This document shows positions 45,425 through 62,232 of a stretch of DNA of 64,000 bases, one piece after another. A program made the translations under genes and the position numbers. Position 1 is the first letter of the stretch. The number at the start of each line of letters is the position of its first letter. The notes under the pieces were generated by a model. It had not been told where the DNA came from, did no database searches, and saw only the letters and a list, made by a program, of their open reading frames with translations. Source of the stretch: Octopus vulgaris (taxonomy: Eukaryota); the NCBI GenBank assembly GCA_951406725.2, contig OX597819.1, positions 61,318,001-61,382,000 on the forward strand, read 5' to 3'.

Positions 45425-47507
45425 ACATACAAGAACTAAAGGAGGATATCCAAAAATTCTGTCGTAAGTTACGAATCGTAGAATTCTTCACAAATAGAAG
45501 TAATAAGATTGATGAATCCCTAGTAAAGAATAAATCAAATTTCACCCCACCAAAAAGAAGAAATAGTTATTTTGACCAATACATTGCTATCCTGTCAAAT
45601 TTCCCCTTTAGACGCAAGACTAAAGACTAATGTTAGGCCAAACATTAACAAATCCGAAATGTCTGCACTTAAACGTATAAAAAAAGATCAAACAATAATA
45701 ATTAAATAAGCAGATAAAGGGGATGCAATTGTTATTATGGATGCAGAATACTACAAGGATTTGGTTGAGGACCAACTGAAGGACACAACCTTCTATTGTG
45801 AAATTCCTACAAATATAGACCACTACATCATGAAGAAGATCAACAACCTTGTTTTAAAACACAACTCACCTACTGATAATGAAATAGACTACATCACCAA
45901 TGTCGAGCCTAAATCCAGCAATTTCTACGGCTTACCGAGACTACATAAATCAAAAGATACTTAGCATGCAGTAAAAAAAAAAAAAAGTGAGTCTATAAAA
46001 TTACTGCATCCAAAAGACTTAAAACTCAGACCTATTATAGCTGGCCCTGCATGCCCTACCCACCGTCTATGCAATTTTATTGATATTCTTTTGAAACCAC
46101 TATGTACCTACATAACCGGTTTCATCCGTGATGACATCGACTTACTGTTCTATCTTCCCAAAACAACTGAAACAAATTCACGTCTACCTACTTTTGATGT
46201 GGTAAGCCTTTACACGAATATTCCGCATGATTTAGGAATAAAGGCGGTTAAATACTGGGTAGAAAAACATAGAGAAATGATTCCCAATATTAGACACAGA
46301 CTTATTCTGGAAAACAACACATTTTTCTTCAATGGAATGAATTACATCCAAATTAAAAGCACGACGATGGGAAAGAGGTTTGCTCCCGTTTGCGCAAACT
46401 CTCTAACGGGATATCTAGAAAAATAACTCTACCAAGAAGTATAGGAAAACTATAGCACTGGATTTTGAAATTATATTGAAAAGGCATGGAAGAGATACCT
46501 TGACGATTGCTTCATAATCTGGACAAGATATCTAAATACTCTGGAAGAGTTTAATATTCTCCTGAACAACCTACGCCCATCTCTCCAATTTACAAAGGAG
46601 ATGAGTTGTACCAAATTACCATTCCTAGATATGATGGTAATTAAAGAGGACACCACCATTACCCCCAGATATATACTACAAACATACGGAGATGCATCAA
46701 TACCTGTATTTTAAGTCGTGCCATTCATGACATACAAAACGCAGAAGAATTTGTACTATTGTAGAAGATGCAAATATCAGGAACAATCGCCTAACAGAAT
46801 TAAGTGAATTTTTGCTCAAACAAAAATACCCATCTCTACTTATAGAAAATGGTATACATCGGGCAATAAAAATACCCAAACAACTGAGGACAACCCAAAG
46901 AAGAGGAAAACAAGAACAGGTCATACCATTTATAGTAACACACAACCCATGTCAATAGAATATCTTCAACATTGCCAAAGCAAATCTACCAATCATTGCT
47001 CAAAGTAATGAATTAAAAGATATAATCACAGATCAAGCTATAGTGCTTAGTAAGACAGCCTAAAAACTTGAAAAAATTATTAACAAAAGTAAAGTTTGAC
47101 CTTAGCAACAAAGACCAATCATTCACTGTATCTAAAGGCAATGAAATCTGGTGTGGCACATGCCAATTCATACATAGCGGCCGATATATGAACACAAAAT
47201 CTGGAAAAATATTCACAAACGCAAATATGAACTGCAAAGTTTAATTTACTACATCAAATTCCCAAATTGTGAAGAACTATATGTAGGTCAGACTGGAAAT
47301 GCACTATCAGAACGTTCACATGTGCACCGACAGCAAATTAGAGAGTCAGATGCCTGTCAGATACCTTTGAGTAACCATCTAGCAATATGCAGTCGGAAAA
47401 TATTAATATTTTCCATTCTACAAACTATACAGTCCAAGTGAAATTGAGAGAAAAATCAGAGAAAAGAACTTTATTAATGAATTCCAACTCAAGCTAAATA
47501 AACGATA
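45425..47507 (+). pseudogene. Penelope-like retroelement (RT + GIY-YIG endonuclease), disrupted; Cys-rich linker suggests a Neptune-like clade
   Basis: ADKGDAIVIMD, FYGLPRLHK, LRPIIAG, FDVVSLYTNIP, STTMGKRFAP, WKRYLDDCF (46496), LPFLD, WCGTC linker, IYYIKFPNCEELYVGQTG (47245); multiple stops and frameshifts. Confidence 0.93.
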
Positions 47508-48374
47508 ATACTAATACTTAGAGGTACCATTTCTACTGCTAGAGGTACTATTTCTATAATCTTATTTTGCCACAGCTACTCCTACCACCACCATTTATTC
47601 TTGCTGCCGGGAGCTGGCGCACTGATCGTTGTAAAGTTGATCGGTCGTAGGTCGACGACGACCTCTAAATCCAAAGGAGAACTTGATTTCAGCAAACAAA
47701 CTAACGAAGCTAGTGTTCTGTCTCGTTACATAGAACGGATTTTAATGGCGATTGGGTTCCAGGCAATTAGCTGAAGGTCACTGGCTTATATCCGCTCACC
47801 AGTATTGCATCGTATTCGCGTTCAAGACACTTAACCTCCTAATAATCTAGTCCATCTAGTTCTGAGTGGCTTCTGCGACAAAATAGTCGCTGTATGCACG
47901 CATAGTACTTTGTAACTGACGAGTAACTTATTGCCTAACAGTATCGTGTTTAGATTTCCGCTCCGGAAAAAGCTATTTACGGTAGCGACCCGCCCTAGAT
48001 TAGCATTCAATCCAGAAAGAGACTTACTTCTCCACCGATTAACGCAACTGCAGTCTGAGATGAGTAATAAATGGATTTTATGCATTTTAGTTATTTCGAG
48101 AGGGATTAACTTAGTTTTTGTTCCTTAGAATGGTAAACGGTATATATACCATGTTACTTAATTCAGTTAGCTTAACTGAGTTAACGTCTATTAAAAGCCC
48201 TGTTCGTAGACGCAGCGAAGCACCAACGGTAGATAAGAACTGCTCAATGCTTGGCCCGTAGTCTAACATTCTATAACCGACACCCTACTGTTTTCGGTCG
48301 AGAAGATATAGGGCTAGGTCTCTTGCTGAAATGATAATTCTGTTATTGTGAGTGTGTATGCGTGAACATGCATA

Positions 48375-49796: not shown

Positions 49797-50047
<251 letters not shown>

Positions 50048-50057
50048 TATATATATA

Positions 50058-50274
50058 TTGTCCTGTACCGAAGAAGAGAAATAACCCAGAAACCATTGGT
50101 CTACAGATATCGCTAAGGCTAGAAAGGGAGCAATAAACTCCCTTGGTCATGGTATACAGACACAGACCATGTGTCGGTAGCCAGCTGGAAAAGATGTTTT
50201 CTTGGGGCTTAAAAAGTAGTAACGTCGTCCTGTGTAGGACAGCCACATTGTGTTGGCAAATAGATTTTACTGCT

Positions 50275-50277
<3 letters not shown>
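50058..50277 (+). mobile_element. Retrozyme-like HHR element, family 2, (TA)n-flanked
   Basis: HHR at 50063-50106, several hairpins, and conserved blocks shared with 55264-55537. Confidence 0.7.
50063..50106 (+). ncRNA. Type I hammerhead motif
   Basis: cugua CCGAAGA a gag aaauaa ccc a GAAAC cauug GUC uacag: stem I cugua/uacag is perfect, stem III acc/ggu, GUC site at 50099-50101, stem II weakened. Confidence 0.7.
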
Positions 50278-50330
<53 letters not shown>

Positions 50331-54560: not shown

Positions 54561-55020
54561 CTCTTTTACATGTTTCTGTCATTTGACTGTGGACATGCTG
54601 GAGCACCGCCTTTATTCGAGCAAAGCGATCCCAGGACTTATTCTTTGTAAGCCTAGTACTTATTCTATCGGTCTCTTTTGCGAACCGCTAAGTTACGGGG
54701 ACGTAAACACACCAGCATCGGTTGTCAAGCGATGTTGGGGAGACAAACACGAACACACATACATACATATATGCATACATATATGTATATATATATATAT
54801 ATATAGCAATAATAATTCTCTAAAAGGGATATAGACAGTAACTGCTCGATAACATAAGGGACTAAAGCCATCTGAATATGGCTAGGGACAGGGCAGGGTG
54901 GTGGGGGTGTTACTGTTGCATTTAGCCCCAGGCGAACATCGACGTCACCAGAAAGGCTCGACACCGTCACGGTGCCCTAAACCTGCAAAGGGAGGTAATT
55001 CCCCGATGAAGCGGAAACCA

Positions 55021-55066
55021 CACACGGACCATGGTTTCAAGGTGTATTGCCTATCATCGGCGTGTG
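55021..55066 (-). ncRNA. Type I hammerhead ribozyme motif (copy 1)
   Basis: Reverse complement of 55322-55367. Confidence 0.82.
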
Positions 55067-55321
55067 GTAGGCCTCCGCTTCCTCGACGAATTCTCACCAT
55101 GCAGGATTTTCTTATATAGATTTTCAAGCAAAATACATTTGCTGATTTCGAAAATCTGTTCGAAAGCAATAATAATTCTCTAAAAGGGATATAGACAGTA
55201 ACTGCTCGATAACATAAGGGACTAAAGCCATCTGAATATGGCTAGGGACAGGGCAGGGTGGTGAAAATCTATATAAGAAAATCCTGCATGGTGAGAATTC
55301 GTCGAGGAAGCGGAGGCCTAC

Positions 55322-55367
55322 CACACGCCGATGATAGGCAATACACCTTGAAACCATGGTCCGTGTG
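55322..55367 (+). ncRNA. Type I hammerhead ribozyme motif (copy 2)
   Basis: cacacg CCGAUGA u agg caauaca ccu u GAAAC caug GUC cgugug: 6-bp stem I, stem II agg/ccu, palindromic ACCAUGGU stem III, GUC site at 55359-55361. Confidence 0.82.
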
Positions 55368-55533
55368 TGGTTTCCGCTTCATCGGGGAATTACCTCCCTT
55401 TGCAGGTTTAGGGCACCGTGACGGTGTCGAGCCTTTCTGGTGACGTCGATGTTCGCCTGGGGCTAAATGCAACAGTAACACCCCACCACCCTGCCCTGTC
55501 CCTAGCCATATTCAGATGGTTTAGTCCCTTATG

Positions 55534-55572
<39 letters not shown>

Positions 55573-61930: not shown

Positions 61931-62232
61931 ATAATACAAAATGGGACAAGAACGCAAAACACTCAAATAGACGACACAAAAAAACGGACGGGTCATTCGA
62001 AGCCTCTAATCTTCAGTCAAGAACCGGATCATCCTCGCAATTTCGGCTGATTAATCTTGAGATCGCTCCGATCCGGCCAGCCCCAAGGAAAAACTAAGCT
62101 ACGAGCATTAGATTTCTTGGAAAAAGGATCGAATGTATACGAAACAAGGACAGAAAAACGGACGATGCCACACGAATATAAATACAAAAAACAATAATAG
62201 TAATAACAGGACAAAAACAGCGGGTGTCTTAC

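Follow-up and report, generated by a model that had tools for sequence, protein, structure and literature searches.

The piece of octopus DNA at positions 50058-50277 belonged to a superfamily of hammerhead-bearing repeats in which a folded RNA domain outside the ribozyme covaries and is tied to two fixed insertion ends. It was found in a window of 64,000 nucleotides from Octopus vulgaris (the whole stretch analysed; assembly GCA_951406725.2, contig OX597819.1), and positions without a locus name are those of the window. The superfamily had a defined family structure, copies in tandem and inverted arrangement, (TA)n targets, two 3' ends and compensated helices. By anatomy the element was filed as a non-LTR retrozyme that would work like a non-autonomous Penelope-like element (PLE), and we consider it fairly probable that its domain marks where a Penelope-like reverse transcriptase (RT), supplied in trans, docks and begins its copying. 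The repeats themselves may already be catalogued; the novelty lies in a domain that covaries and is linked to these two ends. No published description of such a domain was found in a search that had most subscription papers and Repbase outside its reach, and the accessible part of PMC13282606 contained no mention of these elements.

The copy at 50058-50277 was examined together with its relatives in the genome. In a DNA search, the 40 scored of 2,111 candidates gave relatives 84-90% identical over the full query. These subfamily F relatives carried about 130 bp more upstream and occurred as partial tandems and inverted pairs, so the piece is a 5'-truncated part of a monomer of approximately 350 bp, which has decayed by about 10% and lacks the first ~130 bp as well as the tail. 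A previous reading made from the sequence alone had described a 220-bp element; that stretch is present, but as a truncated part of a 345-364-bp monomer. It was flanked by a short (TA)n at 50047-50058 and by (TA)25. A repeat of about 150 bp (49900-50048 on the minus strand, and 61933-62069) abutted the copy on the other strand and ended at a microsatellite; it was present in 7 of the 282 sequences compared.

The deep homology proposed between this copy and family 1, here subfamily A1, was borne out by local alignment. The score of 50058-50277 against 55315-55535 was 116, compared with 62.8 ± 6.8 for dinucleotide shuffles (0/2000, z 7.8), and the part downstream of stem I, without the ribozyme, scored 83 against 48.8 ± 5.9 (0/2000, z 5.8). 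The blocks stood in the same order in both pieces, as had been read, and GATGTT started at 50193 (+92 from the cut) and 55448 (+87 from 55361), reproducing the offsets of 92 and 87 nt. Three hairpins had also been named, and all of them exist, but gtcct/aggac is without a counterpart in family 1 (region identity 0.12). Similarly, the AGCCA block is present, but its A is a T in most relatives of the copy, where it pairs with A.

Features of the window, with strand and supporting evidence
Feature	Position	Strand	Evidence or remark
Decayed RT and GIY-YIG Penelope-like element	45430-47541	+	~86% identical to young family
Subfamily F copy, 5'-truncated, single	50058-50272	+	Relatives 84-90% identical reach further upstream; profile match 50058-50276
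Type I hammerhead	50063-50106	+	Core CCGAAGA...GAAA...GUC; predicted cut after 50101
Hairpin H1	50124-50144	+	3' part can alternatively pair with the upstream spacer (rod arm) in full monomers
Hairpin H2, 6 bp, 5-nt loop	50159-50175	+	Alone in tree test 499/5000, not significant
Stem P3/H4, internal loop and U.U pair	50178-50210	+	Most conserved block; tree test 19/5000
H5 5' strand, long-range helix	50216-50223	+	Two-sided changes in 7/8 pairs; tree test 18/5000
Variable hairpin H5b	50227-50240	+	Absent in subfamilies A and B
Hairpin H6	50241-50258	+	12-16 nt before first fixed 3' end; alone not significant in tree test
First of two fixed 3' ends (+169 to +171 from cut, approximately) and 5 extra bases, then microsatellite	50265-50277	+	
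(TA)25 target microsatellite	50277-50326	.	Sequence
Inverted 5'-truncated A1 stretch, ~1.3 monomers	54806-55263	-	Carries tail, ends at second fixed end (+222)
Young subfamily A1 copy (family 1)	55264-55535	+	Ends at first fixed end (+176 to +178)

The hammerhead that had been proposed for the copy was found in its place, with stem I at 50063-67/50102-06, CCGAAGA at 50068-74, stem II at 50075-88 and GAAA at 50089. Stem III was short and near-palindromic. Stem II contained an A.C mismatch and there was no second ribozyme, so the copy is probably inactive as a source despite its retained core. The core and stems I-II were intact in 4 of 29 F copies versus 12 of 13 A1 copies. An unpaired foot of stem II, thought to be shared by the two families, is A.A here and U.U in family 1, but G-C or G.U in other subfamilies, and is therefore not a trait of the superfamily. 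Covariation of stem I was strong, with canonical pairs in 95 of 101 cells and with 29 two-sided changes (0/5000 shuffles), and RNAalifold recovered the extended stem I unaided. The core pair occurred as C3-G8, U3.G8 and U3-A8, the last variant being described in PMC4209133. The whole window gave no Rfam match at gathering score. The best match was a weak HH9 on a relative (28.5 bits, E 6e-4), below that score, and at four loci searched with E-values everything besides the weak HH9 was microRNA-type noise. A separate small hammerhead family with a CAUUG-type loop 3 was seen around position 1500 of loci L098, L102, L103 and L105; it ended at (TA)n about 30 nt after the cut and was without the domain.

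A block-based pattern, which makes its own letters look invariant, had at least 6,107 matches in the genome and none in the reversed control; 30 plus 20 more copies were sampled among the matches listed. A second pattern gave 105. Diagnostic motifs divided the copies into 17 bins, each holding 2-34 rows (10 rows unbinned, 4 misbinned and dropped), at least 18 subfamily bins were recognised in the superfamily, and further single types were encountered beyond them. The copies formed a graded series of 55-90% identity. The two window families were far apart (0.58) with intermediates bridging them, and they are the ends of one graded superfamily. Two young subfamilies, G (364 bp, 97-100% identity) and H (363 bp, 96-98%), were met by chance in flanks, outside the pattern; they were more distant than the pattern-found groups and had the same helix order. 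The blocks called conserved were kept in many further subfamilies, but GATGTT and AGTAAC were replaced in G and H with their pairing retained. Monomers measured 345-364 bp with tandem periods of 350-364 bp, and the whole monomer was homologous and self-paired. A shortened unit of ~119 bp, holding only H5b, H6 and the tail, was repeated about six times at L132 740-1558. In the window, 54806-55535 was one A1 insertion with an inverted 5' part. Elsewhere in the genome A1 formed arrays of 360-bp units, up to nine or more, at 99% identity, and the distance from the column majority was 1.6% for A1 and ~10% for F. Words of A1 occurred in 20 public runs from 8 studies under five organism labels. The public runs examined were contigs throughout; cyclic ones of 390 nt fitted tandem DNA and circles equally, and no run was recorded as RNA. 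Scans of metagenomes (2 bacterial matches) and of viruses (4 matches) were at chance level, none of the matches passing the covariance model (CM).

Each repeat unit carried a type I hammerhead, and the unit was a short non-coding tandem repeat within the 150-400 bp of non-LTR retrozymes. An optional 3' tail, 5' truncation, and tandem and inverted copies were found, as in a non-autonomous PLE. The (TA)n target was common to the retrozymes and the autonomous PLEs of the genome, often in one array. Other classes were considered and rejected. Coding constraint did not fit, with stops in most frames and no shared ORF. A tRNA-derived SINE would carry a tRNA-like head with the A and B boxes of pol III, and neither box was shared among 8 natural monomers. 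The LTR retrozyme of plants, with its type III hammerhead, PBS and PPT, did not match the type I topology, the tandem units and the absence of an LTR layout here.

The shared blocks were found to be helix strands, namely those of H2, of P3/H4 with its U.U pair, of the long-range H5, and of hairpins H5b, H6 and H8. The partner strand of H5 lies in the tail and is absent from the 50058 copy. Between distant groups, identity was 0.83 at H4, 0.70 at H2 and 0.68 at H6, compared with 0.83 for the ribozyme from GAAA to the cut. In the rod arms it fell to 0.34-0.44 with pairing retained. The helices were picked by eye from groups A-F, and 27 natural copies were chosen and aligned with plain MAFFT for their assessment. 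In that set, 90.2% of 887 cells were paired, and 18 of 33 pairs showed two-sided changes (0/500 shuffles; 4-12 pairs in slid controls). On a tree built from unpaired columns, co-changes on the same branch numbered 14, 13 of them canonical, against 4.7 ± 1.9 with partners permuted (0/10,000). P3/H4 and H5 were significant singly, and H2, H6 and H8 were not. H5 had been proposed from A1 and F before G and H were read; it was not significant on groups A-F, and G and H gave four of its five co-changes. Among one-sided changes on internal branches, 15 of 40 broke a pair. The expectation of an old superfamily with an undescribed conserved RNA domain was thereby upheld within this genome and close relatives, with many more subfamilies, covarying pairs, and an H4 as conserved as the ribozyme part.

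Folding of natural monomers gave results that depended on the subfamily. Unconstrained circular folds of D1 and G contained the same junction, and the energy model supported H2 and H5 in both (0.96-1.00). In A1, B1 and B2 these helices were not favoured, with pair probabilities of 0.00-0.20 for H5 and 0.01-0.39 for H2. RNAalifold alone found only P3/H4 and H6, and it gave no useful structure on decayed F copies. In the rod helix formed by the spacer with the segment after H1 (for instance L117 1500-1854 and L220 1473-1836), pairing was kept through almost full replacement of the sequence. According to the folding models this helix competes with H1 and could have a switch role. RNAalifold also paired alignment columns 103-105 with 175-177, joining the conserved CCC after H1 to the conserved GGG of the H4 block as an alternative to P3.

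The insertions had two fixed points of termination, each adjoining (TA)n or (CA)n; counted from the cut, they lay at about +167-179 and +222-238. The two ends together accounted for 15 of 16 A1 termini (+175-178 in 9, +222 in 6), 26 of 39 F termini (+167-171 in 20, +231-232 in 6), 21 of 22 G termini (+179 in 9, +232-235 in 12) and 23 of 27 H termini (+177-178 in 6, +234-238 in 17). Since the queries reached only to the first end for A1 and F but took in the tail for G and H, the ratios between ends are skewed and the positions are not. H6 preceded the first end by 12-16 nt, and this end was inside the H5-closed loop. The second end came after H8 at a distance of about 11 to 26 nt, and the tail between the two ends was 44-62 nt long. 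Because H5 has its 3' strand in the tail, it matters in the template RNA; H5 and H8, lying partly or wholly beyond the first end, would be selected in that template rather than in the inserted product. Both ends coincided with short TA-like motifs, so microhomology with the target could help to fix them. An optional 3' extension is known as the PLE tail (PMC8557442), and in vitro work has shown that this tail spans the interval from one internal RT start site to another, both downstream of the hammerhead, and that the surrounding RNA region is required (PMC11167929). By analogy, the stretch between the two ends of the octopus insertions corresponds to a Penelope-like tail. At L224 840-2100, and at L116, L148, L151, L206, L221 and L222, one (TA)n array held several retrozyme subfamilies and PLE ends tail to tail. 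With several elements in single arrays, the microsatellites appear to act as shared landing sites.

Together, the tail, the inversions and the microsatellite target point to PLE machinery for these insertions. The domain frames both fixed ends, and Penelope-like tails are tied to internal RT starts; the domain is thus likely to be an RT docking and start signal. An RT recognition signal, an internal promoter and a ligation aid had been the first suggestions for it, and the two fixed 3' ends support the first of these, although three autonomous PLE families gave no match to the domain. From genomic anatomy and covariation we infer the following steps. Tandem copies would be transcribed and cut to monomers by the hammerhead, and the monomers probably circularised, as published for other retrozymes. 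The RT-endonuclease of a PLE would bind the H2/H4/H5/H6 junction and nick a (TA)n array. cDNA synthesis would start internally, either 12-16 nt 3' of H6 in the loop closed by H5 or just after H8, and rolling copying round the circle would leave tandem copies numbering from one to at least nine, in many cases with a 5' piece in inverted orientation.

Three autonomous PLE families of the genome were sampled, with intact frames of 775 aa, 781 aa and 884 aa. They were named Neptune/Nematis-type from the domain order (RT, Cys-rich linker, C-terminal GIY-YIG). They also ended at (TA)n with fixed 3' ends, in one family two ends 46 nt apart, and carried minimal hammerheads with C3-G8 or U3-A8 cores. 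Downstream of the ribozyme they were rich in AT or pyrimidines, with weak folding and no relation to the domain. In the 781-aa family (L192-L217, downstream of the GIY-YIG match) the minimal hammerhead had a U3-A8 core and about 39 nt separated two 3' ends; the UTR of this family contained repeated motifs of CCAAT/TGACGTC-like type. The 884-aa family (L270 3300-6400) had a UTR of about 3 kb consisting largely of degenerate CA repeats and a tandem period of 6.2 kb. The young relatives of the decayed element at 45430-47541 carried a 454-aa frame upstream of the intact 775-aa one and had a tandem period of 4,271 bp; the decayed element was rejected as a parent of the retrozyme on the different pLTR of these relatives.

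The suggestion that the blocks be compared with the UTR or pLTR of autonomous PLEs led to no match in the three families. A profile HMM over 93 PLE and other loci and the CM over 12 loci returned separate insertions only, and pairwise comparison of the domain with PLE pLTRs was at the chance level of shuffles (1 of 36 tests at p 0.038). A pLTR sequence shared with an autonomous partner was therefore not found among the three families and the GIY-YIG-selected loci; the shared end expected of a SINE-like pair is missing from these three pLTRs. As candidate carriers, the 30 GIY-YIG-selected loci and the third PLE family were rejected on the ground that their domain matches were separate insertions beyond a (TA)n array. 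A G copy next to an RT fragment was likewise a separate neighbour, and the resemblance of one PLE tail to H8 was not significant. In the Naiad consensus sequences of the PMC8557442 supplement, where line breaks could mask matches, a squid element contained one matching 9-mer but not the order around it, and the octopus entries gave no match. One junction of a different kind was present at L277 6956-9432 (C1:131.17 Mb), where 1.66 kb of the UTR of the 884-aa family, without its own 3' end, was joined gapless and on the same strand to a 2.3-unit A1 array. It was the only such junction among the element loci screened. This chimera suggests a template switch, possibly naming the partner enzyme; as a single case, it could be an insertion with target deletion.

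The absence of the domain from the autonomous pLTRs sampled would also be expected if the domain bound a host protein that ligates, stabilises or exports the circle or silences the ribozyme, the ends then arising from microhomology and local RT preference. It is argued in PMC7229834 that circle closure is the work of host ligases and that the ribozyme is blocked by something besides self-pairing, and PMC2837043 refers to a protein that binds newt satellite 2 RNA. However, in four subfamilies both 3' ends are framed by the domain, whose distance from the ligation junction is 55-235 nt, and we regard a host factor as unlikely. Recent common descent with general selection for a compact self-paired circle, and no specific domain, is quite unlikely. 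The whole monomer is indeed homologous and self-paired, and pattern searches favoured copies retaining the central block; but H4, H2 and H6 keep 0.68-0.83 identity where the rod arms pair at 0.34-0.44. Moreover, A1 and F, a pair found by whole-element BLAST and not by pattern, are 0.81 identical at H4, and the chance finds G and H keep the helix order.

Two further roles would place the function of the blocks elsewhere. Tandem arrays require a promoter, and a conserved functional domain in salamander satellite 2 is reportedly a snRNA-type promoter, which would favour an internal DNA promoter, a role also raised by the sequence-only reading. Against it, pairing is conserved where the sequence is swapped, and no A box, B box or octamer is shared by 8 natural monomers, all of which have internal T runs of at least 4. 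A DNA promoter is for these reasons disfavoured and highly improbable. That the domain is itself catalytic or an auxiliary ribozyme part, such as a ligase or second cleavage motif, would suit its compact multi-helix fold, its conserved unpaired bases and the lack of an Rfam match, but no known ribozyme core was matched and the hammerhead has its own extended stem I, making this extremely unlikely. A docking and start signal for a Penelope-like RT remains the reading we prefer. In a bolder and rather doubtful form of it, the domain would not be a leftover pLTR but an independent RNA module that recruits RTs, a junction similar to telomerase RNA in which one helix fixes the start. If this were true, a parasitic RNA circle would have kept the module through many waves of spread, borrowing RTs with dissimilar RNAs of their own. 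It would serve as a portable cis-signal of 350 nt that directs insertion into microsatellites, and as a model for the reading of structured RNA by a TERT-related PLE enzyme.

The recognition and insertion of animal retrozymes are still a proposal (PMC7229834; bioRxiv 10.64898/2026.07.22.740005). The superfamily offers a PLE tail together with a covariation-backed fold around two predicted start sites, and one genome holds both young members of 97-100% identity and intact candidate enzymes. With a defined fold, young members and candidate enzymes at hand, the recognition step is directly testable by the published in vitro assay. The metazoan non-LTR retrozymes of PMC7229834 are alike in their type I hammerhead, short non-coding tandem repeat (350-390 bp in mussel), occurrence from monomers to multimers, self-paired predicted circle and coexistence with PLEs. 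They differ in that the accessible part of that paper described no conserved non-ribozyme domain or fixed 3' ends and called the sequences species-specific. For Xenopus retrozymes PLE mobilisation has likewise been argued, but 24 of 57 families there match known TEs, nearly all at PLE termini, whereas 0 of 3 sampled autonomous octopus families share the domain (bioRxiv 10.64898/2026.07.22.740005). Cricket pDo500 and newt satellite 2 are likewise satellite-like repeats that carry a hammerhead and show compensatory changes, and conservation in pDo500 is higher in the ribozyme than outside it (PMC2837043), whereas here a non-ribozyme block equals the ribozyme core in conservation. In the Anolis PLE Poseidon, as proposed for the octopus elements, two internal RT starts downstream of the hammerhead bound the tail, the target is AT-rich and an RNA region is required. 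Poseidon, an autonomous element, has this signal within its ORF, and its first start is 85-92 nt from the cut (PMC11167929); the octopus RNA is non-coding, its ends are at 167-238 nt from the cut, its junction covaries and its tail measures 44-62 nt.
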